Below, piece after piece: positions 10,494 through 30,425 of a stretch of DNA of 64,000 bases. Made by a program: the position numbers and the translations under genes. Under the pieces are notes generated by a model. The model was not told the DNA's origin. It did not search any database and saw only the letters and a program-made list of their open reading frames with translations. The DNA is taken from positions 64,001 through 128,000 of the forward strand of contig CAXXHB010000003.1 of the NCBI GenBank assembly GCA_963664815.2, in the 5' to 3' direction. The DNA is from Spirochaetota bacterium. GTDB lineage: Bacteria > Spirochaetota > UBA4802 > UBA5550. The number at the start of each line of letters is the position of its first letter. Position 1 is the stretch's first letter.

Positions 10494-12344
10494 TTAAATA
10501 TCCTGATGTTTAAAGTAAATGGAGGTTGTGGTTCCATTTTCACTATTAATTTTTAAATTACCGTCAATCTGCCTTGTGAGTATCGATACAAGCATTAAAC
10601 CCATGCTTGCTGAATCTTCAATATTGAAGTCATCCGGCATGCCTATACCGTCATCTGAAACACTGAGTATTAATAAATCATCTGATTTATGCAGAGACAC
10701 CCTGATCTCCCCATTCATGGTGCCGGGGTATGCATATTTTAATGAGTTTGTAATTAACTCATTAAGGATAAGACCCAATGGTATTAGTCTTTTTAAATCA
10801 AGCTTAACATCATCCAGTGTTGTTATAAGTCTGCCCGTAGTGGAATCAAAGTTATATGTTCTGAATATCGAATCGGTCAGACTTTTTATGTAAACATTCA
10901 GATCAATCCTGTCCAGATTTTTGGAACTATAAAGCTGTTCATATATTGCCGACATGGAATTAATACGCGAAATTGCATCGGCAAATATATTCCGGGCATC
11001 ATCATCCCTGATCTTATCCATGCCGAGGTGCAGCAGGCTGGCTATTATATTCATATTGTTTTTAACCCGGTGCTGAAGCTCCTTCAGCAGGATTTCCTTT
11101 TCACTGATCAGTCTTCGCAGGCTCTCTTCGGCATGTTTCTGGTCAGTTATATCCTGGTTGGCGCCATACCATTTAATAATTTCTCCCATGGAATTTCTGA
11201 TTACCCGCGCAAGAACGGCAATAATGCGTATTTCGCCGTCTCTGCAGATAATGCGGTGTTCAAGGCGTGTAGTATATTCCGGATTCTTATTTTCCAGAGC
11301 TTTGTCTATTTCCTGTTTAACTATAAATGCATCATCAGGGTGAACAAATTCCTTCGCATATTTTTCCATAGGCATTATTAAGCCCTCTATTGCTGCGCTT
11401 GTCCGGTAAATTTTATAGAATTCATCATTAAAAGTAAAACTACCTGTTTTAAAGTCATAGTCCCATGGGCCAAGTTGCGACAGTTCCGCGGCAAGAGAAA
11501 GAATGACCTGGCCTGATTTAATTAACTCCTCGTCAGCCTTTCTTTCTGTGATATCCTGGTTGATCCCGTGAATTTTCTTAAACAGATTATCATGTTCTTT
11601 TTCAACAAACAGCCATACGTTTACCCAGAATTTTTCATGATTTTCACGTAACATCTGTATTTCTATTTGCTCATGAAAATCGGGATCTTCTGACACAATA
11701 GCCTTGGTGATAAAATGCTTGAACTCTGCAGAAGATTCCGGAGCAATATATTTATCCATGAATACTTTCATTGACATTTTATAATCACCGGCATTGCTCA
11801 ACTGTATACCATGCATGTTATAAAACCGTTGATTAAAATAAAAAACACCTGTTGTTATATCCAGTTCCCAGTATGCCATATTTGCTGCCTGCATTGCATC
11901 TTCGTATTTATGATTTAACTGCAGTATTAATTTTTCTGCCTGTTTATTTTCCGTGATATCAGTAACAAAATTGAGAGTTGCGGGTTTCCCGTTCCAGTAG
12001 AAGAGAATAGCGTTAAGCTCAATCCATCGGATTGTTCCGTCTTTATTAATTATTCTGAACTGATAAATGTGGGGAACATAGTCACCTCTGATCCGGCTCA
12101 GATGATTTTCCATAACTATGTTACGATCTTCAGTATAAATAAAGTCGATAAACTGGCGTGAATACATCTCCTCTTTTGTATAACCTGTTAATTTTGTTGT
12201 GGCAGGATTAACATATTTCAGAGTATTATCCTGTGCAATAAATATGGCCTCTTTCGCATTTTCAATCAGCTGCTCATATAACCTGCCGGCTTCAGAGAAA
12301 ATATTTACAGTTGAATTATTTCCGTTTTTTTCTGATTTATCCAT
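10494..12344 (-). CDS. PAS-domain sensor histidine kinase, HisKA_2 (PdtaS-like) family
   Basis: Three PAS domains; H-box LLKELQHRVKNNM, NELITNSLKYAY, VSDDGIGM, SMGLML. Confidence 0.93.
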   Translation of the reverse strand: MDKSEKNGNNSTVNIFSEAGRLYEQLIENAKEAIFIAQDNTLKYVNPATTKLTGYTKEEMYSRQFIDFIYTEDRNIVMENHLSRIRGDYVPHIYQFRIINKDGTIRWIELNAILFYWNGKPATLNFVTDITENKQAEKLILQLNHKYEDAMQAANMAYWELDITTGVFYFNQRFYNMHGIQLSNAGDYKMSMKVFMDKYIAPESSAEFKHFITKAIVSEDPDFHEQIEIQMLRENHEKFWVNVWLFVEKEHDNLFKKIHGINQDITERKADEELIKSGQVILSLAAELSQLGPWDYDFKTGSFTFNDEFYKIYRTSAAIEGLIMPMEKYAKEFVHPDDAFIVKQEIDKALENKNPEYTTRLEHRIICRDGEIRIIAVLARVIRNSMGEIIKWYGANQDITDQKHAEESLRRLISEKEILLKELQHRVKNNMNIIASLLHLGMDKIRDDDARNIFADAISRINSMSAIYEQLYSSKNLDRIDLNVYIKSLTDSIFRTYNFDSTTGRLITTLDDVKLDLKRLIPLGLILNELITNSLKYAYPGTMNGEIRVSLHKSDDLLILSVSDDGIGMPDDFNIEDSASMGLMLVSILTRQIDGNLKINSENGTTTSIYFKHQDI

Positions 12345-12618
12345 TTAATTATTCCGGTTTTATAAAAGTGTTTTACACTCTTATAAATATATAATAAGGA
12401 ATATAACCGGAAAAACAAATTATTTGAAAGTAACGGCTGCGAAATTGAAACTAATATAACTGTTTATTTTATGTTAAAATATATGTTAAGGTATTAAGAA
12501 TGAAATTTTGTAAATTTCATTACGTCTGAAAATAACTCTACAGCGCTTTATCATTACATGTTAAATAAATTTAATTGACAGATGTTTTTCTGTAAATATA
12601 GGCTTATGGTATTTTTAA

Positions 12619-14280
12619 ATGGAATTCAAACGCTTGTCCACTCGAATACAGCTATTATTACTTGCTGCACTACTTGCATCTGCTCTCTGCTCAGGCTGCG
12701 GCAAGAAGGAAAAGGATGTCCCGTACGCCTCTGAAGGTGTAATAGATCTGCGCGGCCATGATTTCGGCAGCCGGGGGAGTGCAAGTCTCAGCGGAGACTG
12801 GGAATACTATCCTATGAAACTCCTGTCTCCGGATGATCTGGAAAAACAGGAGAATACCGGCAGCAGGAGATTTGCCCGTATACCCGGCAGATGGAACTCC
12901 GGATGGAGAGTATACTTCCCGTCTTACGCCAGGGGGTTCGCGACATATCGTATCAGGGTCATCACCGGGAAAGTCCATGACGACTATCTCTCTCTGAGAA
13001 TACCAGTAATACAGTCAGCATACAGACTTTATATCAATGGTAAATTAATTCACAGGGAGGGGAATCCCGGAACATCAGCCGGATCTGCTGTTTCGGCTTA
13101 CTCAGACAAGGTTGTGCTGCTTCCCCCTGCAGATGGAGTATATGATATAGTTATTCAGGTTTCAAATTATATTTCCCCCAGCGGAGGGATCACGAGAAGG
13201 CTCAGTATCGGAGAAATGTCATATCTTGCCGATTCACGTCAGATGGAGAATCTCCTCTCTGCATTTCTTGTAAGCGCACTGCTGCTTCTAGGATTGTACC
13301 AGCTGTTAATGTTTTCTTTGCAGCGCGCGGAATTGCGCTACCTCCATTTCGGGATCTTCTGCTGGTGCACTATGATATATTCAATTGGTCTTAATAATTC
13401 CTACTGGTATACTGTTTTCTCTTTTCTGAGCTGGCCGCGCACCTACAGCTGCATGGCGATCGCCATATATATGGGCGGCGCATTTATACTGGCCTACATC
13501 CGGCAGATTTTTTCACCGGATATCCCGCGCAGGATTTTATATGTGACTTTCACTGTTAATACCGCCCTTTCAGCAGTTATGGCGGTTATTCCGGCTGAGT
13601 ATTACGCCTATCTGCTTCCTGTATTACATGCCGACATTGTAATTATAATCATGATGTCTGCATTCTTCATTATGCGCTCATCCTCAAAGTACCGTGAGGA
13701 TGCTGTTTATGTATATCTCGGGCTTGCTATTTATGCGCTGACAACTGTGTTTGACATATTATCTGCGGCAGGAATTGCACCTGGCTTTCCTAAGACGGCC
13801 CAATGGGGAATTCTTGTTATATGCATTATCCAGGTTGTCGGCATGTCCCGGTATTTTATAAAGGCCCGTCACAGGTCTCTTCATCTTGCCGTAGATAACG
13901 AAAAACTCAGGTCTCTGCTCGCCGGGAGGATGAACGAGGGACAGTATTCAATCACTGAGAGTATAGAAGGTAAAATAAATACTGCCATAGCATACCTGCA
14001 TGAGAACTTTAAAGATGATATTTCAAGGGAAAACCTTGCAGCTGCGCTTGAACTTCACCCGGACAGCTTCAGCCGCTACTTCAGGCTTCATACCGGCAGG
14101 AAATACAGTGAATACATAAATGAACTGCGAATTAAAGAGGCAATCCGTCTCATCAGTGAAACTGATGACTCAATAATATCTATTGCGATGAATGTCGGTT
14201 ACAACAGTCTTCGCACATTCAACCACTCTTTTCTTTCCATTACCGGGCGTACACCTGGTGATTTCCGCAAGGCTCAGTAG
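12619..14280 (+). CDS. AraC-family regulator with extracytoplasmic galactose-binding-like domain and 7TM (7TMR-DISM-type) sensor
   Basis: Lipoprotein-like N-terminus; LSGDWEYY...GFATYRI...AYRLYING (DISM extracellular domain); about 7 TM helices; C-terminal AraC HTH (YINELRIKEA...IAMNVGYNSLRTFNHSF...GRTPGDFRK). Confidence 0.9.
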   Translation: MEFKRLSTRIQLLLLAALLASALCSGCGKKEKDVPYASEGVIDLRGHDFGSRGSASLSGDWEYYPMKLLSPDDLEKQENTGSRRFARIPGRWNSGWRVYFPSYARGFATYRIRVITGKVHDDYLSLRIPVIQSAYRLYINGKLIHREGNPGTSAGSAVSAYSDKVVLLPPADGVYDIVIQVSNYISPSGGITRRLSIGEMSYLADSRQMENLLSAFLVSALLLLGLYQLLMFSLQRAELRYLHFGIFCWCTMIYSIGLNNSYWYTVFSFLSWPRTYSCMAIAIYMGGAFILAYIRQIFSPDIPRRILYVTFTVNTALSAVMAVIPAEYYAYLLPVLHADIVIIIMMSAFFIMRSSSKYREDAVYVYLGLAIYALTTVFDILSAAGIAPGFPKTAQWGILVICIIQVVGMSRYFIKARHRSLHLAVDNEKLRSLLAGRMNEGQYSITESIEGKINTAIAYLHENFKDDISRENLAAALELHPDSFSRYFRLHTGRKYSEYINELRIKEAIRLISETDDSIISIAMNVGYNSLRTFNHSFLSITGRTPGDFRKAQ

Positions 14281-15992: not shown

Positions 15993-16010
15993 TTTAAAAT
16001 TATAACTGAT

Positions 16011-16044
16011 AATAAAAAACCCCGGAATTGCGGGGTTTTTTATT
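16011..16044. terminator. Bidirectional intrinsic terminator
   Basis: AATAAAAAACCCCG-gaattg-CGGGGTTTTTTATT just after the CsgG-like gene. Confidence 0.85.
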
Positions 16045-16091
16045 ATTCAGATACTGACTCTAAAAGTCAAAATTTCATCTCTTTGAATTTT

Positions 16092-16130
16092 AATCCCGGT
16101 AATCCCTTAATCCTGTAATCTTGTTCAGAC
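16092..16130 (+). repeat. AATCC-rich direct repeat, copy 1
   Basis: AATCCCGGTAATCCCTTAATCCTGTAATCTTGTTCAGA, nearly identical to the copy at 17003-17040. Confidence 0.8.
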
Positions 16131-16321
16131 TTTTATCCGCAAAATCGTACAGGTTCACCTGCGTCGGGATATTGTTACACTGTTTTTCTGAAAAAATATT
16201 ATTCCTGAAATTTTTAAAAAATCTGCTTGCCCCATGTCATTTGCTTTTCCGGACTGGTTATATAGAGACATAAGTCTCAATATAACGACAAAAAATAATA
16301 ATAAATAAGGAGAGTAAATGA

Positions 16322-16861
16322 ATGGCACAAGTAAAGCTTCACCCCTACTTAAGAACTGCGCATGGAGGTCTGGATGGTCTTGTGCTTTACAGGCGCTATG
16401 GAAAGATCTACATTAAAAGACGCACAATTCCCAATAATCCCCGCACAGAACCGCAGGTGAAATGCAGGGGTAATTTCAGCGTCAGTGTAAAGGCATGGCA
16501 GGTACTTCCGGAAGAGGAGAAGAACATTTACAGAATAAGGGCAAAGAGGAAAAAGAAGTCAGGTTACAGTCTCTTTATGTCGGAATATCTCCGTGGCATT
16601 GCACCCGGTTCCCCTGTAACTCCATCGGGAAGCATCGGAACGGGGGATGCAGCGATTGTATCCGCTTCAGGTGAAGTTACAGAAAATACATGTTACTATT
16701 CAGAAAACAGCAAATCAGCAGATGGGCAGAATAATTTTTATATGGTAAAAGATAAAAGTACATCTGTTAAAACGGGACTTAAACAGTATGAAGATCCTGT
16801 TAAAAACCGTTTCAATACCGTTTCAACACCGTTACCGACAGAGAAAAAAACACGTTTTTAA
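16322..16861 (+). CDS. Hypothetical basic protein (NPRTxxQ-type N-terminal domain, low-complexity tail)
   Basis: Strong RBS AAGGAG; Arg/Lys-rich first ~90 aa. Confidence 0.75.
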   Translation: MAQVKLHPYLRTAHGGLDGLVLYRRYGKIYIKRRTIPNNPRTEPQVKCRGNFSVSVKAWQVLPEEEKNIYRIRAKRKKKSGYSLFMSEYLRGIAPGSPVTPSGSIGTGDAAIVSASGEVTENTCYYSENSKSADGQNNFYMVKDKSTSVKTGLKQYEDPVKNRFNTVSTPLPTEKKTRF

Positions 16862-16876
16862 CTGTCAGCAGCGTGT

Positions 16877-16902
16877 TTGAGGCGAAATTGAGGCGAAATT
16901 GA
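16877..16902. repeat. 11-bp tandem repeat (TTGAGGCGAAA x2 plus partial)
   Basis: Read directly from the sequence. Confidence 0.7.
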
Positions 16903-17002
16903 CTTCTTGGTAAAGAGAGTCAGGAATTTGTCATAAATATGCCATGGAATTGCATGTACACGATGTAGAGGAAGCTCGTACACGGTCAGTGTATTCGCAG
17001 TA

Positions 17003-17040
17003 AATCCCGCTAATCCCTTAATCCTGAAATCGTGTTCAGA
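17003..17040 (+). repeat. AATCC-rich direct repeat, copy 2
   Basis: AATCCCGCTAATCCCTTAATCCTGAAATCGTGTTCAGA; 3 mismatches over 38 nt relative to copy 1. Confidence 0.8.
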
Positions 17041-17160
17041 ATTATATATATAACAGGTTTAAGTTCGGGACTGGCTTCTTCGCAGCGATCCACCCGGATT
17101 ATCTGATAATTTCTTGACGACTCAGGTTATGATTGATTTAACTACTGTTATGGAGACTCT

Positions 17161-18156
17161 ATGAAAAAGGCACGTTATATATTTCTTGCTGTGGGAATAA
17201 TTCTTCTTGTTTTACTATTTGCAGTTTTCGGAATTAAAAAACCGGTTATGCAGATTATTGATTTCGGCTGGAGATTCTGGATATGCGTGCTGATATACAT
17301 GTTCAATCAGCTTCTGCTCACCTATGGCTGGATGGTTCTTATTACTTATCCATTGAAGGCCCGTCAATATTTTGATGTTCTTCTGGCAAGAATTGCGGGA
17401 GATTCAACTACAACTATAAACACAGCAGCCGGAATAGCCGGCGATGCGTTAAAGGCAATGTATTTAAAGGACGTTGTTCCCTTTAAAATAGGGTTCGCAT
17501 CTGTTGTAATGGACAGAACAATCCACATGGCGGGAAACACGTTGCTGATTCTCACGGGATTGTTTGTAGGTTTTTTTAAACTCAATATGCCCTTCTATGT
17601 CCTTGCGGGAATTTTTTTATTTTTCTCGGTTTTTATGGGGCTTTTGATATATATAATGAAGAAACAGAAGGATGGATTTATAAAATACGGTATATCAATG
17701 CTTCCGGTAAAATTCAGAGAAAAGATTTATGCATCTGAAAGCAGAAAAGAGAAGATAAATAATATTGATCAGGAGATCAGCTTTATTTTCAACAGCAGGG
17801 AAAATCTCAATCATTTCTGGATATCTCTCTGTATGCATACACTCCCTGTTATGGCGGCCGGCACGTTTGAGATTTTCATTATAATGTATTATGCGGGGGG
17901 GAGCGCAACAATACTCGATGCAATGTTCGTTTACCTGTTTGGACTTTTTATTGCGGCTGCGGCATTCTTTGTGCCGCTTAATATAGGTACAAGCGAGGGT
18001 TCTTACTCAATGGTACTGGCGTTTCTGGGTTATGATCCGGTTCTCGGATTAACTGTAGGTATTATCCGCCGCCTGAGAGCGCTGGTGTGGTCTGGTATCG
18101 GGTTGTTGCTTCTTTTCCATAAAGGACTTACGGGGAAGGACGCGGGAATTGAATAG
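17161..18156 (+). CDS. Lysylphosphatidylglycerol-synthase TM domain / flippase-like membrane protein (UPF0104/AglD2-like)
   Basis: Multi-TM; GIAGDALKAMYL, ASVVMDR, FFVPLNIGTSEG...IIRRLR motifs typical of the LPG_synthase_TM family. Confidence 0.82.
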   Translation: MKKARYIFLAVGIILLVLLFAVFGIKKPVMQIIDFGWRFWICVLIYMFNQLLLTYGWMVLITYPLKARQYFDVLLARIAGDSTTTINTAAGIAGDALKAMYLKDVVPFKIGFASVVMDRTIHMAGNTLLILTGLFVGFFKLNMPFYVLAGIFLFFSVFMGLLIYIMKKQKDGFIKYGISMLPVKFREKIYASESRKEKINNIDQEISFIFNSRENLNHFWISLCMHTLPVMAAGTFEIFIIMYYAGGSATILDAMFVYLFGLFIAAAAFFVPLNIGTSEGSYSMVLAFLGYDPVLGLTVGIIRRLRALVWSGIGLLLLFHKGLTGKDAGIE

Positions 18157-18180
18157 AATAATAAAAAACGGATGGAATAA

Positions 18181-19848
18181 ATGAAGAGAGTACAACCGCT
18201 ATCTGACAGAATTGAACAGATGAAAGAGCCGCTGTTTTTGTTTTTTCTTTTTATAACAACACTGATATTCAGACTGCCGACTTTATTTAATGATTTCTAT
18301 GATGTGGACGAACTTGCTGCGATTGTCCAGACAAAAGAATTCCTCGCGGGATTCAAACCTGGAATTGATTTTTCAGAAAGCAAACTTCCCCTTTTTCATA
18401 CAATATATAAATTCTCCTATGGCATCAATGCTGCGTATGGATGGGTAATAGTTCATGCTGTAACAATTATTATTGTTTTCCTTACGGCACTTTCAGTCTA
18501 TTATATCGGCAGAGTGGTACGTGACCGGAGGACCGGTATTATAGCATCAATAATGTATGCTGTTCTTATCTCCTCTTTCAACAGGCATTTTATGGCGACA
18601 AACGGGGAGGTGATATATAATCTCCCGATCACGGCCGGGTTGCTCTTTTTTATTTTAATGATTAAAAACCGGTCCTGGTATTTAAGAATGCTTTATTCTG
18701 CTTTTATATTCATTGCTGTATACGCAGCAATGAATATTAAGGTTCATGGGGTAATACTGCTTTTATTTATTGCTTTCTTCATTATTCTGTATATCCCATA
18801 TTACCGTAATATTTTATCGCGAAGGATTTTACCATACATGGTAACAGCGGCGGTTGTTTTACTTGTTTTTACCATTGATTATTTTATAACAAAGAAATTT
18901 GCCTCCGGGATGATAAGCAGACTGCTGAATCTTTTGTTTTATGCCACATCAGATCGCAGCAGTAATCCACTTTTCCTGATCGGAGTATACACATACAGGC
19001 AGTTGACGCTTGGATTATGGCATATGGTTCTATGGGTACCGGCAGCGGTGTACATGTACAGGTTTGTCCGCAGCAGATTCAGGAGAGATACAATAGAGGA
19101 ATCGGCTGTGGCTATTTTTGCGCTGATTACCTTTCTTATGGTTTTCGCCGGGGGCGCCCGGCTTTATTACCACTATTTTATGACGACGTATCCTTCACTA
19201 TGTGTTATCGCTGCCATTGCGCTGGTTGCTGCTGATTCTTCTGCGGTTAAGAAAATCTATTCAAACATTACAATCGCTTTTTTAATTCCGGGATTGTTTT
19301 TTCTTTCATGGAATATTAAGGATATATATATTAAGTATTATAACCGGGAACTTTTTTATAATGAACCAGCGCCGCTTTTCTGGTTTCGTGCTGTTGTTGT
19401 AAGCTCGATGGATGACTATTTGCTGCCGAACGGCATTTATGTAAATACCGTTGAGTATATAAAAAACAGCACAAAACCTGATGAAACAATATTTGTCTGG
19501 GGTGATGGTCCGCATCTTTATTATTTCTCAGACCGGAGAATAGCAATACATCATGTATGGCCGAAAGGTATAGCATTAAGGATAGAACGGCTTTACAGGG
19601 AAAACAGTACCGGATCTTTATCTGAAGCTGAGATACTGGAGAATGGGTTTATCGTAAATATGGAAAGTAAAAAGCCGGCTCTGTTTATTGATACCTCGCC
19701 TAAAGGGCTTCACCGTGGCATAACAAGGTTCGGCAGTTTCGCCATGTATCCCTGCAAAGTTCCACCTCTTATGAAAAAGTATCTTGATGATCATTACCGG
19801 CTTGAAAAGGTAGTTGATGATTACAGAATATACCGGCGCGTCAGATAA
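18181..19848 (+). CDS. GT-C fold glycosyltransferase family 39 (ArnT/PMT_2-like)
   Basis: DVDE first-loop acidic motif, ESKLPL, NGE, KVHG, YYHYF; about 11 TM helices; C-terminal TKPDETIFVWG periplasmic domain. Confidence 0.82.
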   Translation: MKRVQPLSDRIEQMKEPLFLFFLFITTLIFRLPTLFNDFYDVDELAAIVQTKEFLAGFKPGIDFSESKLPLFHTIYKFSYGINAAYGWVIVHAVTIIIVFLTALSVYYIGRVVRDRRTGIIASIMYAVLISSFNRHFMATNGEVIYNLPITAGLLFFILMIKNRSWYLRMLYSAFIFIAVYAAMNIKVHGVILLLFIAFFIILYIPYYRNILSRRILPYMVTAAVVLLVFTIDYFITKKFASGMISRLLNLLFYATSDRSSNPLFLIGVYTYRQLTLGLWHMVLWVPAAVYMYRFVRSRFRRDTIEESAVAIFALITFLMVFAGGARLYYHYFMTTYPSLCVIAAIALVAADSSAVKKIYSNITIAFLIPGLFFLSWNIKDIYIKYYNRELFYNEPAPLFWFRAVVVSSMDDYLLPNGIYVNTVEYIKNSTKPDETIFVWGDGPHLYYFSDRRIAIHHVWPKGIALRIERLYRENSTGSLSEAEILENGFIVNMESKKPALFIDTSPKGLHRGITRFGSFAMYPCKVPPLMKKYLDDHYRLEKVVDDYRIYRRVR

Positions 19849-19874
19849 TAAGGAGAACCCGGTTTTTTGTTACA

Positions 19875-22825
<2,951 letters not shown>

Positions 22826-22839
22826 TTTATTCTCCTCTG

Positions 22840-24138
22840 CTACTTTGTTCCCGGGATAAGTTCAAGAATTTCTTTTATAGGCATACAGACAGAATCCGCT
22901 TCCTTTGACCTCTCATTTTCCAGAATCATTTTTGCAGTGCTGAACATTGCCGGATAGGATGACCTCAGCATATGGTTGGCATATATAATAATATTGGCAC
23001 CCCATGAATGAAGTTCGGTTTCAGTGAACTGGTTATATGTGGTGGGTACAAGAACAATCGGAATTGAAGTGTAATCTTTTCTGAACCTTAAACAGAATTC
23101 TTTTATATCATTGCCGGACTTTTCCTTGCTGTGGATCATGATGCCGTCGGCTCCGGCATGTACATAGGCCGCCGCTCTTTCAAGAGCGTCATCAACAGTT
23201 TTTCCGGCTATCAGGCTTTCAAGCCTGGCAATAATCATAAAATCAGCAGTTACCTGAGCTTTTTTCCCCGCACTTATTTTCTCGCAGAATTCAGGGATTG
23301 AGGCGAGGTTCTGTTCAACATCCGTTCCGAAAAGTGAATTTTTTTTAAGCCCCACTTTGTCTTCGATTATAACTGCGGAGACTCCGTTGCGTTCAAGAGT
23401 ACGGACTGTAAAAACGAAGTGTTCGGGAATGCCCCCTGTATCACCGTCAAAAATAATAGGTTTTGTTGTACACTCAAGGATATTTGTCAGATCCTGTAAT
23501 CTTGTAGTAAGATCAACAGCCTCTATGTCAGGTTTCCCCTTGCTGGTTGAATCAGTTAAACTGGAAGACCACATGCCGTCATAATGATGTATCCCGTCCT
23601 CTTTTTCTATTTCAATATTTTCAACTATAAGTCCTGACAGGCCGGAGTGTGCTTCCATAATCCTTACAATCTTTTTTGCGTGAATAAGGCGGCGTAGTGC
23701 TTTGAGGCGTATATCAGGAGTGGTGCCTATCGATTTTTGTGCTTCATGAAGCATCGAAGAGGTAATCCCGTGAGTATAGGGAATTTCTATTACGTCACCG
23801 CCGATCTGTTTCATGACTTCAAGAACGTCATCGCGTACCCTGCTTAACGGGCCGCTTTTCCAGTCGTCTCCGTGAATGATTGCATCCGGCCTGTATTTCA
23901 GAAGATTAGGGACATAACTCCATTCCTCCTGAGGTACAATAGTATCCACCCCTTTAATGTTTTCAACAACCGTTTTACGCTGTTCATATGTGAGGAAGGG
24001 GAGGCGCTTGTGTGAAGCTATTGCTGAATCAGTTAACAGGCCCGCCATTACCTTTCCGTGTTTTGACGCTTCATTGATAATATTGATTATTCCGGGGTGG
24101 ATGATATCGCCGGTTAAACCAAGATATATGGTTTTCAT
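22840..24138 (-). CDS. aepX: Phosphoenolpyruvate mutase with N-terminal cytidylyltransferase-like domain
   Basis: Diagnostic EDKxxxxxNS motif (EDKVGLKKNS), EAHSGLS, DGDTGG, YANHMLR; N-terminal CTP_transf-like domain (HGDDW, PYTHGITSS). Confidence 0.97.
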   Translation of the reverse strand: MKTIYLGLTGDIIHPGIINIINEASKHGKVMAGLLTDSAIASHKRLPFLTYEQRKTVVENIKGVDTIVPQEEWSYVPNLLKYRPDAIIHGDDWKSGPLSRVRDDVLEVMKQIGGDVIEIPYTHGITSSMLHEAQKSIGTTPDIRLKALRRLIHAKKIVRIMEAHSGLSGLIVENIEIEKEDGIHHYDGMWSSSLTDSTSKGKPDIEAVDLTTRLQDLTNILECTTKPIIFDGDTGGIPEHFVFTVRTLERNGVSAVIIEDKVGLKKNSLFGTDVEQNLASIPEFCEKISAGKKAQVTADFMIIARLESLIAGKTVDDALERAAAYVHAGADGIMIHSKEKSGNDIKEFCLRFRKDYTSIPIVLVPTTYNQFTETELHSWGANIIIYANHMLRSSYPAMFSTAKMILENERSKEADSVCMPIKEILELIPGTK

Positions 24139-24503
24139 AGTTTCTCCTTTTTTATAATGCAGTAAGGTTGCTTTAATCCCATAAAATATGCCATATCCCT
24201 GTGAAGAATAAAAAATGCCGTGGCTGCCTGTTCCTGTTTAATGATTCAGAGTTCAATATAACAGATCGGTTCACGGTGTTTTCACTGAGACTGATATAAT
24301 CTATTTGATTAAATTGCAACAATAATGAATTATAACAATCACCATCAGGTAACAGGGGCAATTTATTATATCAGTCAATTAATTAAAAGTTTTTTTTAAA
24401 AAGTCTCTTTTTTTTAAGAAACGTTTCAGGTAAATTTAACCGCAGGGTTTTCTGTTAATAATGCAGAGTGCTAATATTATTGACAAAATTTAAACAGGGT
24501 TTT

Positions 24504-24551
24504 CTCTATCATAAAGAAGAGATTTTTTAAAATCACTTCTTTATGATAGAG
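24504..24551. promoter_or_regulatory. 48-bp near-perfect palindrome in the divergent aepX/yidC-like intergenic region
   Basis: CTCTATCATAAAGAAGaGATTTT-tt-AAAATCaCTTCTTTATGATAGAG: 23-bp arms with one mismatch, just downstream of TTGACA (24480-24485). Confidence 0.6.
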
Positions 24552-24608
24552 CCCCGGAGTTTAATGCAGAGAGCAGAGCACTGTAAGTATTATGCATGAG
24601 GTGTAAAT

Positions 24609-25295
24609 TTGAATATTTTATATATGATTTTTTTCTATCCTATTGAACTCCTGATGGAGTTCCTGATGAGTAATATTTTTTTGTTTGTCGGTTCATACGG
24701 TGTATCTTTGATTTTGACGAGCCTGTCTATAAATATAGTAATGATTCCGGTTTTCTGGTATGCGGAAAAACTTCAGCAGCGGGAACGCGACATTCAGGCG
24801 GCAATGAGACCGAAAATTCAGGAATACAAGAGCGTTTTTAAAGGGTATGAACTGCATCTGTATATAACCAACCTCCATAAGCAGCACAACTACCATCCGG
24901 TATATGCACTGAGGTCATTACTCGGCTTATTTATCCAGGTACCTTTTTTTGTTGCGACTTATAATTTTTTATCTCATTACAAGGCTGTAGAGGGAGTTTC
25001 TTTCCTGTTTTTCTTGGATCTTGGAAAACCGGATATGCTTCTTTCCATGTTCAGTTATAGTATAAATATATTGCCATTTATAATGACAGCCGTTAATCTT
25101 GTATCAAGTTTTGTCTATGGTAAAATGCTTACAAAAGCGGAAAGAATCAATATATATGTTATAGCTCTGTTTTTTCTTGTGCTGTTGTATAAATCTCCGT
25201 CCGGTCTGCTGCTCTACTGGACCTGTAATAATATTTTCAGTCTGTTTAAAAGTATAGTGTTTGTAAAGCAGCTTCAAAAAAAATCTGACGCATAA
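24609..25295 (+). CDS. Short YidC/Oxa1-family paralog (no periplasmic P1 domain)
   Basis: TTG start with GAGGTG RBS; YGVSLILTS..PV, MRPKIQ, LFIQVPFF, FLFFLDLGKPD, ILPFIM, PSGLLLYWTCNNIFS signatures. Confidence 0.88.
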   Translation: MNILYMIFFYPIELLMEFLMSNIFLFVGSYGVSLILTSLSINIVMIPVFWYAEKLQQRERDIQAAMRPKIQEYKSVFKGYELHLYITNLHKQHNYHPVYALRSLLGLFIQVPFFVATYNFLSHYKAVEGVSFLFFLDLGKPDMLLSMFSYSINILPFIMTAVNLVSSFVYGKMLTKAERINIYVIALFFLVLLYKSPSGLLLYWTCNNIFSLFKSIVFVKQLQKKSDA

Positions 25296-25311
25296 TGTAA
25301 CGGGGTTAAAT

Positions 25312-26604
25312 ATGTTAACAATTACAGCCGTTTTCTTTTTATATTTTCTGCTTGTCGGCGCTAATGCCTATGCCTACCTGGATCCCGGTTCAGGGAGTAT
25401 GCTTATTTCCGCTCTTGTTGCCATGGTGACAATTTTAATCTACATGGTAAAGAGTTTTATATATGACAAGGTGAAGGTTCTCGGGAAAAAAAGCGATCTG
25501 CCTGATCTGAAAAGAGAATACAATGTTGTGGTATACTCGGAAGGGGGGCAGTACTGGAATGTTTTTCTTCCTTTACTTCAGGAACTTGAATCAAGAGGTG
25601 AGTCTGCCGTATATTTTACCAGCAGGCAGGATGATCCCGGTCTGCAGCAGGAATTTGAACATATAGAAAAAAAATACATAGGTGAAGGAAATAATGCATT
25701 CTTTGTTCTGAACAAACTCAGGGCGAATTTTGTCATCATGACAACTCCCGGTCTTGGAGTACTCCAGATTAAAAGGAGCAGGGGGGTAAAACACTATTGC
25801 CATATAACACATTCCGCCGGCACCTGCTCAAGCTACAAGGCCTTTTCTCTCGATTATTTTGACAGCGTACTTGTCGGCGGTACTGCCGATAAAAATATTA
25901 TAGCCGAACTGGAAGAAAAAAGAAGAACCCCCAAAAAACAGGTTGAGATAATCGGCTGCAGCTATCTTGACGTGTTACGTACAAAACTTAAAAACGGCAG
26001 TTACAGTTACAATCTTTTCGCTGAAAAGAAACCTACAATTCTGATCTCTCCCACATGGGGAGAACATGGCCTGCTGAGCAAATACGGCAGAGATCTCTTG
26101 AAGACACTTTCAGAATGCAGAGATTTTAATATAATAGTAAGACCTCATCCGCAATCCTTTGTATCGGAAAAAAAACTGATGGATGAGTTATTAAGCAGTT
26201 ATCCGGACAGTGACAGCTTAAAGTGGGATTCTGAAAAGGATGGATTAAAGGCGATGTTCCATGCTGACCTGATGGTAAGTGATTTTTCAGGGATAATATA
26301 CGATTATCTTTTCCTCTTTGAACGCCCGGTGCTTACTTTCAAGGCGCAGTTTGAAAAACGTGGAAGAGAGGCCATGGACTTGAAGGATGACTCACCCGAT
26401 ATTAAGTTTCTTGATAAAATAGGCAGAACGCTTCAGGAAACGGATATATCTGATTTAATAACGATTATAAAAAAGAGTCTGTCTGACAGGAGTGCGCTGC
26501 CTGATGTAATTAAAGAGGCTAAGGAAGCGCTTACACAGTTTCCCGGCGAATCGGGTAAGCGTGCTGTTGATTTCATTCAGTCTGTATTGAACAGTAAAAA
26601 ATAA
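25312..26604 (+). CDS. CDP-glycerol glycerophosphotransferase (TagB/TagF)-family protein with N-terminal AYLDPGSG membrane segment
   Basis: HITHS, ILISPTWG, IVRPHPQ, ADLMVSDFSGIIYDYLFLFERPV motifs of the Glyphos_transf family. Confidence 0.87.
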   Translation: MLTITAVFFLYFLLVGANAYAYLDPGSGSMLISALVAMVTILIYMVKSFIYDKVKVLGKKSDLPDLKREYNVVVYSEGGQYWNVFLPLLQELESRGESAVYFTSRQDDPGLQQEFEHIEKKYIGEGNNAFFVLNKLRANFVIMTTPGLGVLQIKRSRGVKHYCHITHSAGTCSSYKAFSLDYFDSVLVGGTADKNIIAELEEKRRTPKKQVEIIGCSYLDVLRTKLKNGSYSYNLFAEKKPTILISPTWGEHGLLSKYGRDLLKTLSECRDFNIIVRPHPQSFVSEKKLMDELLSSYPDSDSLKWDSEKDGLKAMFHADLMVSDFSGIIYDYLFLFERPVLTFKAQFEKRGREAMDLKDDSPDIKFLDKIGRTLQETDISDLITIIKKSLSDRSALPDVIKEAKEALTQFPGESGKRAVDFIQSVLNSKK

Positions 26605-26617
26605 TAAGGCAGCAGTT

Positions 26618-28411
26618 ATGATAAACAGAAATCCGCTTTTCATTAAAATTGATATGAGTATAAAAAGATTTATGCAGAGAGATTTAACAGTTTTTTTCAC
26701 GAACTCATTATTCTTTACAGGCCTGCTGTTAATCTATTCACTTGGATGTTCTTATCTTCTTCCACAGGGGGTAAATGCACATTTTGCCTCAATTTTATTG
26801 ATAGTTCTTTCCGGGATTTTTCTGCTTTTTGTGCTGATTTTTTCAGGCTGGCGTTTTCTTACACGGAAAATGTCTTATGCATATAATAAAAAATACGAGC
26901 CGTTTAAGACAGCAGACTTTATTTTCATATTGATCCCGATGACACCGGTTATGCAGTATATTCTGTCAAACCAGGATTCTCTGACTATGTTCAGCTCGTC
27001 TTTAATCTTTATAATCTTTGGAGTAACTATTGCCATATTCGGTATTGTTATTCCGGTACTGCTGTCACGTTTTGCTTTTAAAAAGGTGTTAATAACAGCA
27101 TCTGTCAGTTTTCTTTACATGATAATGAGTATGGCGTCTCTTGCGGCAGCCAATGGGTGGAGCGGGAAGGGAATAATCAGTATTCAAATTGTGATCCTCC
27201 TGATCGTTATTCTTGTTTTATCGTTACTGAGATTTATTCCTGAAAAAATTATTATAATTGCCATTGTTGTCTTTTTTACTGTAAACACAGTTACCGGAGT
27301 TTTATTTAAAAAATCAGAAGGTGGAGAGTCTGAAACGGTTAAGAATTTTTCTGTAATGTCTGCTCTTGAAGGGAAGAGGGTTAAAAAGCATAATGATGTT
27401 CTGCTGATAGTATATGAATCTTATCCCAATTATGAAACCTTAAAGCATTACGGTTTTGAAAACAGTGAACAGCTTGCATTTCTGGAATCAAATGGTTTCC
27501 GTATTTATAATGGAGTATATTCTCTCGGGATACCCACAGAACAGTCCATGTCGAGAGTTTTTAATGTCGAGCTGGATCTGAAAGAACATAAAAAGTACCT
27601 GGCAGGGGGTGGGGCTGTTCACAGTATTCTCAGAGGACAGGGATATAAAACATATGGTGTTTTTGACAACAGCTGGAATTTAAGAGGGCTCCCCATTGAC
27701 CAGATTAAATATGATAACTGTTTTCCAAGACCTTCCGGCGTTATGGATAGTAAGGTGCTTGTGAATGCAATATTTACAGGAGAGTTCAGCGATGCCGTGA
27801 GTTTTGAAGGGGTGGATTACAACTCATATATAGATCACAAGCATAAAGTAATTAAAAAGGAATATCCCTGCCCGGTTTTTATGTACTCACACAGCAGTTT
27901 TCCCGGTCATGGTCCCAGCGGTATGGGGATGAGACTTGAAGAGAGGGAGGGGAAGATAGCCGGACATCTTGAAGGCATCCAAAAAGCGAACGTTGAGATG
28001 AAACAGGATGTGGATGTAATAATAAAAAGTAATCCCGACGCTATTGTTGTTATAGCAGGGGATCATGGACCGTTTCTGACAAAAACAGGTTATGGTTTAA
28101 GCAAGGGACGGGGAGGTTTCAGCGCAGAGGATATCGACAGATATGATATCCAGGACAGGTTCGGGTCATTCCTTGCAATAAGATGGCCTGAAAAAAAATA
28201 TGCGGAAAAGTATGATATTAAGGTCTTTCAGGATATATTTCCGGCAATTTTTTCATACCTCTATGATGATGATTCGATATTTAATAAAATCAGGATTGAG
28301 AGAGTAACGAGAGAAATCAAGCGGATACTGGGTGTTTATGTAAAAGACGGGGTCATATATGGAGGTAAAGACAACGGGCAGAAACTCTTTTTAATGGAAC
28401 AGAAAAAATAA
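26618..28411 (+). CDS. Membrane-anchored alkaline-phosphatase-superfamily (LtaS/EptA-like) transferase/hydrolase
   Basis: About 7 N-terminal TM helices, then LLIVYESY (metal Glu), GIPTEQSM (Thr nucleophile position), SHSSFPGH and IAGDHG metal ligands. Confidence 0.8.
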   Translation: MINRNPLFIKIDMSIKRFMQRDLTVFFTNSLFFTGLLLIYSLGCSYLLPQGVNAHFASILLIVLSGIFLLFVLIFSGWRFLTRKMSYAYNKKYEPFKTADFIFILIPMTPVMQYILSNQDSLTMFSSSLIFIIFGVTIAIFGIVIPVLLSRFAFKKVLITASVSFLYMIMSMASLAAANGWSGKGIISIQIVILLIVILVLSLLRFIPEKIIIIAIVVFFTVNTVTGVLFKKSEGGESETVKNFSVMSALEGKRVKKHNDVLLIVYESYPNYETLKHYGFENSEQLAFLESNGFRIYNGVYSLGIPTEQSMSRVFNVELDLKEHKKYLAGGGAVHSILRGQGYKTYGVFDNSWNLRGLPIDQIKYDNCFPRPSGVMDSKVLVNAIFTGEFSDAVSFEGVDYNSYIDHKHKVIKKEYPCPVFMYSHSSFPGHGPSGMGMRLEEREGKIAGHLEGIQKANVEMKQDVDVIIKSNPDAIVVIAGDHGPFLTKTGYGLSKGRGGFSAEDIDRYDIQDRFGSFLAIRWPEKKYAEKYDIKVFQDIFPAIFSYLYDDDSIFNKIRIERVTREIKRILGVYVKDGVIYGGKDNGQKLFLMEQKK

Positions 28412-28718
28412 AAGTTCAGACGAATGCCTGGTCATTACATCCGGTTTACAGAAAACTTTCCCGCAGAAAAGAGGAACAGTAAACTTCACGATCTTTCAGG
28501 TAATATTTTTTCAGGTTGTATTATGCAGTGTTATATCACACCGGTTTTAATACCTCAAAAATAAAAATATTCTCCATTATTATTAATTCACTTAAAGATA
28601 TACTTGATTTTTCGGTAATATAGGGCGATAATCATACTGAATATCCGGATTTATCGTTTAATGACTCTGATTTATTCCCGGTATCATAAACATAATCCGG
28701 CTAAATGGAAGGGGGAAT

Positions 28719-29555
28719 ATGAAACGCATTATTACATTTGCGGTTATGATCGCTGCAGCTTTTACTCTCGCTTTTACTCTCTATGGGGAAACCCAGCCTG
28801 AACTTATGGTCTTTACAAGGCCCGCCTGCGGGAGGTGTACTTATACTGTCGATTTCCTTAAAAAAAATAATATTAAATATACTGAATATTCAACATCGGA
28901 AACTGAAAACAGAACAAAGATGTGGGAAATCGTCCGCGCATCGGGGAAATATAAAAACGGTTCAATAAGCATGCCTGTTGTTGTTATAAAAGGGGAGGTA
29001 TTTATTAATATCCCTGACATGCAGGAGTTTACAGGATCAATCGCTTCGTTGATTGCCGGCAGGAGTACCCCGGTTATCGAAGGAGAAAATAAAACGGATT
29101 CTTCCGATCCATTTATTAATAGCATAAGAGAAAGGCATAACTATTACAGGAAAAACCATAATACTCCCGGTTTAAAATGGAATCCTGTCATTCAGCAGTA
29201 TGCGCAGGCATGGGCGGATAAACTTGCAGCTGAAGACAGAATGTATCACCGTCAACCGAATAAATATGGTGAAAATATATACTGGATCTCCGGCGGGGAG
29301 GTGGATGGCAGCTCTGTTGTTGACAGCTGGTATTCCGAAATAAAGTATTATAACTATAAAAACCCGGGTTTCGGAATGTCCACCGGACATTTTACCCAGG
29401 TAGTATGGAGCGGGTCAACCGAACTGGGATGCGGCAAATCCAGGTCAAAAAGGGGCGGAACATATGTGGTATGCAACTATAATCCTCCGGGGAATTATAT
29501 GGGGATGTTTGATAAAAATGTATTACCAGTAAGCGATAAGAGAAGTGGTAATTGA
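28719..29555 (+). CDS. Secreted glutaredoxin-like domain + CAP (SCP/PR-1/GAPR-1-like) domain protein
   Basis: Signal peptide; FTRPACGRC and SMPVVVIKG (Grx fold); HNYYRKNH, YGENI, GHFTQVVW, YVVCNYNPPGN (CAP signatures). Confidence 0.88.
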   Translation: MKRIITFAVMIAAAFTLAFTLYGETQPELMVFTRPACGRCTYTVDFLKKNNIKYTEYSTSETENRTKMWEIVRASGKYKNGSISMPVVVIKGEVFINIPDMQEFTGSIASLIAGRSTPVIEGENKTDSSDPFINSIRERHNYYRKNHNTPGLKWNPVIQQYAQAWADKLAAEDRMYHRQPNKYGENIYWISGGEVDGSSVVDSWYSEIKYYNYKNPGFGMSTGHFTQVVWSGSTELGCGKSRSKRGGTYVVCNYNPPGNYMGMFDKNVLPVSDKRSGN

Positions 29556-29600
29556 AAATTACCTGTCATGTAAAAACAGCATAATTTATGAAAAAGGAGA

Positions 29601-30425
29601 ATGTATATAATGAAAATTAACAGGCTAAAGGAGTGTATCGTTTATTTTGCTTCTTTATGTATTTTATCTGTGGTAATTACCGGATGTACATCGGCAAAAC
29701 TTATTGAGTATTCATCAACTGCCGGTCAGGAACAGAAGGCATCCCTGATACGCACTGAAATGCTTATTATACATGGTGATGATGAAAAGATAAAGAGAAA
29801 TTATTTTGTTGTTTCTGCTGTTGATTATCCGCAGGATAATAAAAAAAATTATTATTTGATAATAGTTCCATCATTAGGGACAAACTCATATCCGAAGGTT
29901 GATGATCTGTTACTTAGCTATAATTATCCTTTTATAATTCAGGGGGGCAATATAAGCGATCTTATATCGAACCTTGAAAAAATCAGCGCTGAATGGGACA
30001 GCGCCGATATGAAATATTCGGGTGCAGTTTATAACTTTTTTCTCACTTCACCGCAGAGTTCTCATCCGATGTTTATAGATAACAGAACATTTGAAATAAC
30101 ACCGTTTATAAAGTTTAACTACAGCAAAACCGAAAACGGAGCCATGGCGAAACTTTCGCTTGGTAACCGTATGGAAGAAATTATTAATTCCACTGTTGAT
30201 GGAAAAACTGTTAAAACCAGGCTATTCATTCAGGATGATGAACAGAACTGGATATTCGAAAAGTCTGACCAGATGAAGGATTTTCTGAATATTCTTAAAA
30301 AAGGACTTATGGATCTTAAAGTAAAAGGTATGGATGGTTTTTCAAAAAAAGCTGAAGGCCTGACAGATACAAAACCTGCCGAAGAAAAGATTCAGAAAAA
30401 GGTACAAAAAAGAAGGAAAAAGTAG
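29601..30425 (+). CDS. Hypothetical lipoprotein
   Basis: AAGGAG RBS, lipobox VITG-C, long ORF. Confidence 0.75.
   Translation: MYIMKINRLKECIVYFASLCILSVVITGCTSAKLIEYSSTAGQEQKASLIRTEMLIIHGDDEKIKRNYFVVSAVDYPQDNKKNYYLIIVPSLGTNSYPKVDDLLLSYNYPFIIQGGNISDLISNLEKISAEWDSADMKYSGAVYNFFLTSPQSSHPMFIDNRTFEITPFIKFNYSKTENGAMAKLSLGNRMEEIINSTVDGKTVKTRLFIQDDEQNWIFEKSDQMKDFLNILKKGLMDLKVKGMDGFSKKAEGLTDTKPAEEKIQKKVQKRRKK

Follow-up and report, generated by a model that had tools for sequence, protein, structure and literature searches.

An arginine-less YidC-fold protein and its phosphotransferase-like partners at a spirochaete phosphonate locus

What does a YidC-fold protein do beside phosphonate genes when it lacks the positive charge of the insertase groove? 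The question is raised by a 64,000-nucleotide stretch of a Spirochaetota bacterium (contig CAXXHB010000003.1, positions 64,001 to 128,000; hereafter the window), in which a yidC-like gene (24609..25295, + strand) encodes a YidC-fold protein of 228 amino acids (aa; P0001), assigned by profile and structure matches. Together with genes for a TagF-like protein and a 597-aa membrane protein, it forms a tight operon-like row that runs divergently from the genes assigned to cytidine monophosphate (CMP)-2-aminoethylphosphonate (AEP) synthesis. We found that the protein belongs to a clade that uses the YidC fold in a new functional context, tied to envelope phosphotransferases and not to protein export.

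A YidC-fold paralogue without the groove cation

The yidC-like open reading frame (ORF) starts with TTG and comprises 228 codons. This start site is backed by homologues, whose own Met aligns with it (MNI[FL]Y...), and one database record of the same protein begins five codons later (P0002, 223 aa). The protein scored 77.8 bits with Pfam 60KD_IMP (PF02096; cut-off 35), covering profile positions 1-161 of 163, and 85.4 bits with TIGR03592, barely over the cut-off of 84.3. No YidC/SpoIIIJ equivalog model (NCBIfam PRK01318, PRK02944 and others) was reached, the shortfall being hundreds of bits (best equivalog score 76.6 bits, cut-off 891). In HMMER alignments, the groove Arg of B. halodurans YidC2 (3wo6/3wo7, E 2e-13) and R366 of E. 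coli YidC (3wvf, E 2e-4) both fell on Asn42 (...SLSINIVMIP...), and the surrounding groove stretch was gap-free in alignments to solved YidCs. By profile the protein is a member of the PF02096/TIGR03592 family; at Asn42 it departs from the family's groove cation.

The AlphaFold2 (AF2) model, built on 67 relatives, had a mean predicted local distance difference test (pLDDT) value of 89.5. Its helices (30-44, 46-76/79-92, 97-122, 155-171, 176-192 and 198-227) form a core of five transmembrane helices with a cytoplasmic helical hairpin between core helices 1 and 2. The best Foldseek matches in the PDB were the YidC structures 3wo6, 3wo7 and 6al2 (template-modelling (TM) scores 0.67-0.71), with 3wo7_A ranked first at 0.70, and a look-up in the ESM Atlas gave generic YidC clusters only. 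The five-helix core, the coiled-coil hairpin (TM score 0.70, 24-26% identity) and the absence of a P1 domain are shared with the short Gram-positive YidC2/SpoIIIJ (3WO6/3WO7); unlike these, the protein has no long basic C-terminal tail and ends ...KQLQKKSDA. The ORF is a genuine YidC-fold paralogue. The original prediction had described it as such, with 228 aa, no P1 domain and Asn at the R366 position in a gap-free alignment, and the HMMER alignments, Pfam and AF2/Foldseek bear this out.

A second PF02096 gene lies on another contig of the same genome (contig 2; positions 433-2088 of L001). It encodes a 551-aa housekeeping YidC with 198.8 bits for 60KD_IMP, a YidC_periplas domain and Lys at the groove position, and its neighbours are yidD, jag (Jag/R3H) and mnmE. 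This yidD-yidC-jag-mnmE context belongs to the contig 2 copy and not to the gene at 24609-25295, which lacks any rpmH/yidD-type context, as had been supposed from the window alone. Since a separate housekeeping yidC exists, the gene is an accessory paralogue; the refuting condition set in the original prediction, that it be the only yidC in its genome, did not hold. All five other carrier genomes tested likewise had one canonical YidC (192-230 bits) plus one to four clade copies (82-98 bits), with an extra weak partial match of 38.5 bits in one of them, so that a canonical YidC accompanies a clade copy in 6/6 genomes checked. The groove residue is Lys, not Arg, in the housekeeping YidCs of the source genome and of three of the five other genomes.

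We aligned 337 collected clade proteins and 78 genomic copies to the clade profile, giving 415 rows from sources that were not de-replicated against each other. The groove column of these rows holds N 219, S 127, T 46, Q 6, C 5, G 2, K 1, 8 gaps and no R, whereas K or R occupies it in six canonical YidCs from these genomes. At position 102, where core helix 2 begins on the cytoplasmic side, 402 of the 415 rows have R or K (Arg102 in the window protein) and the six canonical proteins have Gly or a gap; the GG(C)xP of YidC insertases at this helix start is R-S-x-x-G in the clade. Other clade-specific invariant residues are E59, E81, Y95, N153, T160, N163, Y170, T205, N207 and K214. About 20 positions are at least 90% conserved over the 415 sequences, many of them polar and within transmembrane helices (N153, T160, N163, T205, N207 and N208), and the cytoplasmic hairpin is kept and highly conserved (A52, E59, G79 and E81). 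The clade thus differs from YidC insertases in having N, S or T for the groove Arg/Lys throughout and in its extra invariant polar residues, while the motif Q110/P112, the pair Y203-W204 and N208 are common to both. In a quick maximum-likelihood tree of 79 clade rows and the six canonical YidCs, the two groups were split with a Shimodaira-Hasegawa-like approximate likelihood ratio test (SH-aLRT) value of 100.

Within the tree, near-identical YidC-like domains (branch lengths 0.007-0.036) occurred in metagenome-assembled genomes (MAGs) labelled Bulleidia, Odoribacter and Desulfovibrio (L015/L016/L017; L054/L038/L060/L064), and a MAG labelled Paratractidigestivibacter nested among Treponema with a near-identical domain. 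Such domains under distant MAG labels indicate either very recent transfer or MAG binning errors. In another Spirochaetota genome (G122, contig 20, 126368-127026), a clade copy is broken by TAG, TGA and TAA stops; presumably this paralogue is decaying next to an intact copy.

Fusions and partner genes of the clade

Most members of the clade are larger than the window protein, 231 of the 337 collected proteins exceeding 600 aa. A near-length search returned 79 relatives, and a search for longer proteins returned 257 at E <= 1e-10; the 120 listed span 562-1247 aa, and 42 of these 120 carry a precomputed Sulfatase match (PF00884). An exhaustive search of 50%-identity representatives yielded 1096 clusters at E <= 1e-30, the best 150 of which are mostly 600-1250 aa long. 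Pfam scans placed 60KD_IMP in the N-terminal and Sulfatase in the C-terminal part, with some Sulfatase scores over the cut-off and some slightly under it. The yidC-like ORF corresponds to the N-terminal domain of these ~850-1100-aa fusions, encoded on its own; in the fusions, a YidC-like domain is followed by a polytopic block and an LtaS/EptA-type domain. Unlike YidC insertases, the clade domain is usually fused to such an enzyme of the alkaline phosphatase (AP) superfamily and, in the genomes checked, is a paralogue beside a canonical YidC.

Two genes downstream, the window encodes a polytopic membrane protein of the AP/sulfatase superfamily (26618..28411, + strand; 597 aa, P0201), placed there by its fold and by the PF00884 matches of its relatives. 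The protein itself had no Pfam match, and relatives at 55-57% identity reach PF00884. Its AF2 model (pLDDT 87.2; about 7-8 predicted helices) matched PbgA/YejM, LtaS, EptA and MCR-1 in Foldseek. The placement is one of fold, because phmmer and profile searches of the family against PDB sequences found nothing significant and only the fold search gave matches. Like LtaS, EptA/MCR-1, PptA and PbgA/YejM, the 597-aa protein and the C-terminal parts of the fusions combine a polytopic N-terminal block with an outward AP-type domain. LtaS/EptA-type enzymes have five helices, fewer than the 597-aa protein, and the window copy is also unusual among them in being too divergent for Pfam or a PDB profile search. 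E/D267, T/S307, H431 and D482-H483 were conserved in 35/35 aligned relatives, a Thr/Ser, Glu/Asp, His and Asp-His set like that of the LtaS/EptA group; we assign these residues putative catalytic roles from motif likeness, not from superposition.

The 597-aa protein is connected to the YidC-like domain through fusions. In 14 YidC-like proteins of 550-842 aa, the C-terminal part is homologous to it, with profile E values down to 5e-164; an example is the ~800-aa fusion of the Neptunomonas locus L024 (5900-8338). In BLASTP, the 597-aa protein gave no significant match to two fusions of the major type (P0083 and P0088), and the connection, found by profile and word searches, is to the rarer ~800-aa subtype. 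Given this null result and the match to the rarer subtype, at least two divergent AP-type lineages have been joined to a YidC-like domain. By homology, the 597-aa gene is the missing half of a YidC-like::sulfatase-type fusion, a split form that the original prediction had overlooked. A complex prediction for the two proteins scored 0.00 and returned no verdict, which is evidence neither for nor against their interaction.

Between the two halves lies the gene for the TagF-like phosphotransferase (25312..26604, + strand; 430 aa, P0202), which starts 16 bases after the yidC-like stop and ends 13 bases before the 597-aa gene. It scored 40 bits with Glyphos_transf (PF04464; cut-off 22.1), covering only profile positions 134-298. 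Its layout comprises a signal-like N-terminus, the motif YLDPGSGS, one transmembrane helix and the catalytic domain; H164, H167 and H279, candidate catalytic residues, are conserved in 11 partners. The PF04464 domain is shared with TagF/TagB and with CD0244 of the C. difficile flagellin type A glycan. What sets the TagF-like partner apart from these is its N-out Y[LI]DPGTGS-transmembrane anchor and its obligatory pairing with the YidC-like clade. For CD0244, the donor that has been proposed is not CDP-glycerol but an amino compound activated by cytidine diphosphate (CDP), a CDP-amino acid (PMC10714395). The cytidylyltransferase neighbourhood of the TagF-like gene fits a CD0244-type donor.

In 78 loci from species-representative genomes, we counted partners in the fetched flank. 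A TagF-like homologue was present in 60 of the 78, no more than 400 bp away from the YidC-like ORF in 50 and sharing its strand in 58/60; of the 39 loci whose flanks reach at least 5 kb in both directions, 36 had one. One evenly drawn sample of 151 Spirochaetota genomes contained 23 with both YidC-like and TagF-like genes, two with only the TagF-like gene (86-87% complete), none with only the YidC-like gene and 126 with neither, a pattern rather than a statistic, as related genomes are not independent. Full-length clade matches in this sample scored at least 180.6 bits and fragments at least 155 bits, the best canonical YidC reaching 139.9 bits. The clade was absent from all 15 sampled genomes of the source's own family or order, and its distribution is therefore patchy. 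Three Bacillota loci (L010, L012 and L023) carry TagF-like::597-type fusions as single ORFs of 1001-1047 codons from stop to stop (for example L023:6616-9759), each adjoined by a free-standing YidC-like gene; fusions of TagF-like to YidC-like domains numbered 0 among the collected clade proteins.

The N-terminus of the partners consists of Y[LI]DPG[TS]GS, one transmembrane helix and then basic residues. This anchor motif was found in 58 of 69 TagF-like frames, with DPGTGG in four more and three cut by contig ends, and it is retained in the TagF::AP fusions. In some partners, a signal-peptide-like segment ending in A-x-A precedes the motif (...AFA-YLDPGTGS); others begin a few residues before it (M-x(2-6)-LYIDPGTGS...). 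In L008 (~8690-8890) and L037 (~8650-8885), a short frame of its own (68 and 76 codons stop to stop) carries the anchor immediately ahead of a 371-aa TagF-like ORF; the anchor peptide is naturally split here, or a frameshift has occurred. The window protein carries the full signature of the fusion clade: a groove residue from the N/S/T set, R/K at position 102, the polar set, a TagF-like neighbour with anchor and an AP-type partner.

On the opposite strand, the divergent genes encode a cytidylyltransferase-like::phosphoenolpyruvate (PEP) mutase fusion (22840..24138, - strand; 432 aa; PF01467 40 bits, PF13714 185 bits, TIGR02320 412.5 bits against a cut-off of 319.55), a phosphonopyruvate decarboxylase (21719..22825, - strand; 368 aa; TIGR03297 403.1 against 312.5) and a LicC/PntC-type nucleotidyltransferase::AEP transaminase (19875..21722, - strand; 615 aa; N-terminal PF12804/PF00483, TIGR03301 369.4 against 360.8). 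The last has the architecture of the ~70-kDa Tde1415 PntC, and PntC enzymes make CMP-AEP (Rice et al., PMC6697681). Judged by these assignments, the divergent operon should yield CMP-AEP, and the window system probably attaches a carbon-phosphorus compound to the cell surface.

The clade as a whole is not tied to phosphonates alone. The original prediction had asked whether the clade without the groove arginine tracks with pepM and TagF-like genes. For the TagF-like gene it does, in 60/78 loci and in all 23 Spirochaetota carriers; for pepM it does so only in part, as pepM was present in only 15/78 loci (12/39 with at least 5 kb on both sides), scattered over the clade in the tree as judged by eye. 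Pfam scans of 73 neighbouring ORFs from ten loci revealed other candidate suppliers near the YidC-like/TagF-like pair: choline/ethanolamine kinase::nucleotidyltransferase fusions, with an EamA transporter in Brachyspira or EutH in Bulleidia, and CTP_transf_like cytidylyltransferases in Photobacterium and one MAG. LicD, glycosyltransferases and a PMT_2 protein were also found beside such pairs. With the pepM link partial and kinase-cytidylyltransferase or cytidylyltransferase genes in other loci, the system would serve CDP-/CMP-activated head groups in general: what the loci share is a small head group activated by a cytidine nucleotide, and the phosphonate-specific role first suggested falls away. 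Treponema putidum (L011, 3340-16870) has four tandem YidC-like::polytopic(::sulfatase) genes (895-953 aa) interleaved with two TagF-like genes; a GT25 glycosyltransferase gene precedes this array. In L008, a 1009-aa protein with NTP_transf_3, PPDK_N and PEP-utilizers domains (10657-13686) directly follows the free-standing YidC-like gene and may offer a route to a different activated head group.

A possible relay across the membrane and its rivals

The scramblase and the dedicated chaperone that the original prediction offered are both candidate roles of the YidC-like protein. We consider it quite possible that the three proteins form a three-part trans-membrane relay for aminoalkyl-phosph(on)ate head groups, in which the YidC fold would act as hub or lipid path. 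The cytoplasmic TagF-like domain would move the aminoalkyl-phosph(on)ate from a CMP or CDP donor to an inner-leaflet lipid acceptor, perhaps diacylglycerol or a glycolipid. The YidC-like module would serve as a membrane hub that holds the Y[LI]DPGTGS-transmembrane anchor of the TagF-like enzyme, and its uncharged, highly polar groove would let the zwitterionic lipid head group reach the outer leaflet in a scramblase-like manner. The outward AP-type domain would then pass the head group to an envelope acceptor via its conserved Thr/Ser nucleophile, as in LtaS/EptA.

That the head group would cross the membrane is suggested by the genetic locking together of a predicted cytoplasmic CDP-/CMP-dependent transferase and a predicted outward LtaS/EptA-type transferase, a coupling to a YidC fold and a cytoplasmic enzyme that distinguishes the 597-aa protein from known LtaS/EptA members. 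Those known members take phospho-head groups off a membrane lipid and hand them to an acceptor in the envelope, and because known AP-type enzymes use a membrane-lipid donor, a lipid-carrier relay would be the most economical model. PptA, too, is described as taking its head group from a membrane lipid (PMC10434233). Insertases including YidC have been reported to scramble lipids (PMC11047089), and the clade groove, uncharged yet unusually rich in invariant polar residues, is consistent with the relay. More speculatively, loss of the groove cation would fit an amine-bearing cargo.

A related reading, which we regard as rather doubtful, is that the YidC fold has been repurposed from protein segments to lipid head groups, as a dedicated scramblase or hand-over channel in a lipid-carrier cycle. 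The TagF-like enzyme would transfer AEP, phosphocholine or phosphoethanolamine from a cytidine-nucleotide donor to diacylglycerol or a different lipid, the arginine-less groove would let the zwitterionic head group through the membrane, and the fused LtaS/EptA-type domain would deliver the head group and regenerate the carrier. GtrA/GtrB/GtrC and ArnC/ArnEF/ArnT charge a lipid carrier on the cytoplasmic side, flip the loaded carrier and carry out the transfer on the outer side, and MprF is a synthase fused to a flippase. The logic of the relay would resemble these systems by analogy; the folds are unrelated, and the predicted cargo is a phosph(on)o-amino-alcohol and not a sugar or aminoacyl lipid.

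Several points weigh against the relay. Its lipid intermediate is hypothetical, and so is a complex of the three proteins. As reported in PMC8920935 (Chen et al.), the R366N variant of E. coli YidC stays functional as long as residue 517 is aromatic or polar, whereas S. mutans YidC2, with Trp at the equivalent of 517, needs its Arg unless the Trp is made polar. The clade keeps Y203-W204, so loss of Arg alone need not end insertase activity, and it has Trp at the 517-equivalent position in common with S. mutans YidC2. Since R366N is functional in the E. coli protein and Arg is needed in the S. mutans one, the missing charge is a suggestive sign of lost insertase activity and not proof of it. 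The N-tail and transmembrane helix of the TagF-like enzyme resemble a classical YidC substrate and would fit protein handling too. In four loci (L007, L008, L037 and L040) with YidC-like and TagF-like genes, no AP-type gene was detected in the flank, so the third step of the relay does not hold for every locus. A second possible lipid flipper is encoded in the window, namely an LPG_synthase_TM/HpnL-like membrane protein (17161..18156, + strand; 331 aa; PF03706 66.4 bits), and AP-type enzymes normally draw on ordinary phospholipids, for which no dedicated loader is needed. The genome-level co-occurrence counts include related, non-independent genomes.

The main rival, in our view unlikely, is that the YidC-like protein is a dedicated insertase, holdase or docking receptor, which would insert and perhaps permanently hold the N-out tail and transmembrane helix of the TagF-like enzyme, or help the polytopic AP-type enzyme to fold, or both, with no lipid movement. 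Proteins with a short N-tail and a single transmembrane helix are the substrate class that YidC inserts alone, and the TagF-like N-terminus has this form, followed by Lys/Arg and often without a signal peptide. The near-universal anchor motif, the minimal YidC-like and TagF-like pairs without an AP-type gene nearby and the conserved cytoplasmic hairpin also speak for such a role. Many partners, however, have a cleavable-looking signal peptide ahead of the motif, so a YidC-only route would be unneeded, and a housekeeping YidC was at hand in 6/6 genomes checked. Nor is there an obvious need for a catalytic insertase fused 1:1 to its client, and Gram-positive YidCs with Trp at the equivalent of residue 517 depend on a groove charge that the clade lacks (PMC8920935).

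That the domain is an inert scaffold, inactive both as an insertase and on lipids and serving to oligomerise or position the AP-type enzyme, seems improbable. It is fused in most family members and has lost its hallmark groove residue, and simple complex formation could explain the link to the TagF-like gene; yet its ~20 highly conserved positions, intramembrane polar residues included, are more than a passive anchor usually keeps, and the module also persists as a separate gene. Some bacteria have two general YidCs, and an ordinary back-up insertase like YidC2/YqjG could lie beside the phosphonate cluster by chance. General YidC domain models are reached, and the groove Arg is dispensable in E. 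coli (PMC8920935). We nevertheless hold this to be very improbable: the protein falls far under every YidC/SpoIIIJ equivalog cut-off, the clade is set apart from canonical YidCs with full support, nearly all relatives are fused to an AP-type enzyme and lie beside a TagF-like gene, and the clade is patchy, with 0/15 carriers among the same-family or same-order genomes sampled.

In a literature search pairing YidC with phosphonate or PEP mutase, sulfatase or LtaS, TagF, and phosphocholine or phosphoethanolamine transferase, we found no description of this family. Term look-ups in PMC6697681 and PMC8942020 gave no mention of an insertase, TagF or glycerophosphotransferase; their supplements might list such neighbours. 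In databases the proteins go by generic names ('YidC/Oxa1 family membrane protein insertase', 'membrane protein insertase YidC'). The present analysis adds as new the split three-gene form, together with the TagF::AP fusions, the N-terminal motif of the partner and the genome-level co-occurrence table. The groove cation has been called 'strictly conserved' in all YidC homologues (PMC8920935), and a clade of more than 1000 clusters at 50% identity (the 1096 above) lacks this supposedly universal residue. If the three-part relay is correct, it would provide a natural test case for lipid scrambling by insertases and would correct many records named 'membrane protein insertase YidC'. It would also supply the step that takes CMP-AEP, CDP-choline or CDP-ethanolamine to extracytoplasmic acceptors, an export step left open in the phosphonate literature as represented by PMC6697681 and PMC8942020. 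Were the fold indeed repurposed for lipid head groups, the clade would be the first natural Oxa1-superfamily member with a primarily non-protein cargo, and a missing transfer route for cell-surface phosphonates would be found. Members of the clade are frequent among host-associated spirochaetes, clostridia and Sutterella, and in bacteria of this kind zwitterionic decorations of the surface influence immune recognition.

Surroundings of the operon

Beyond the CMP-AEP genes, a polytopic 555-aa protein (18181..19848, + strand) has weak likeness to GT-C glycosyltransferases, with 21.8 bits for PMT_2, under the cut-off of 26.1. Homologues of it occur in the syntenic loci L004 and L005, a PMT_2 protein also in L008, and a homologue of the 331-aa LPG_synthase_TM protein in L005; whether the 555-aa and 331-aa proteins belong to the system is uncertain.

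The divergent region between the pepM operon and the yidC-like operon (24139..24608) spans 470 bp. Consensus promoter and terminator matches across 24000-28800 were no commoner than in shuffles, and an Rfam search over 16000-30000 found nothing near the operon, with sub-threshold rimP-leader matches only (16000-16094). The region contains an inverted repeat (24504-24551) with 23-nt arms, 96% complementary and 2 nt apart, which lies 57 nt upstream of the yidC-like TTG. Its 16-mer core is unique in the window (0.08 expected by chance) and occurs in none of the related loci. The repeat could be an operator or a hairpin in the 5' untranslated region. Directly downstream of the three-gene row, a 278-aa protein (28719-29555) combines glutaredoxin-like and CAP (cysteine-rich secretory protein) domains.

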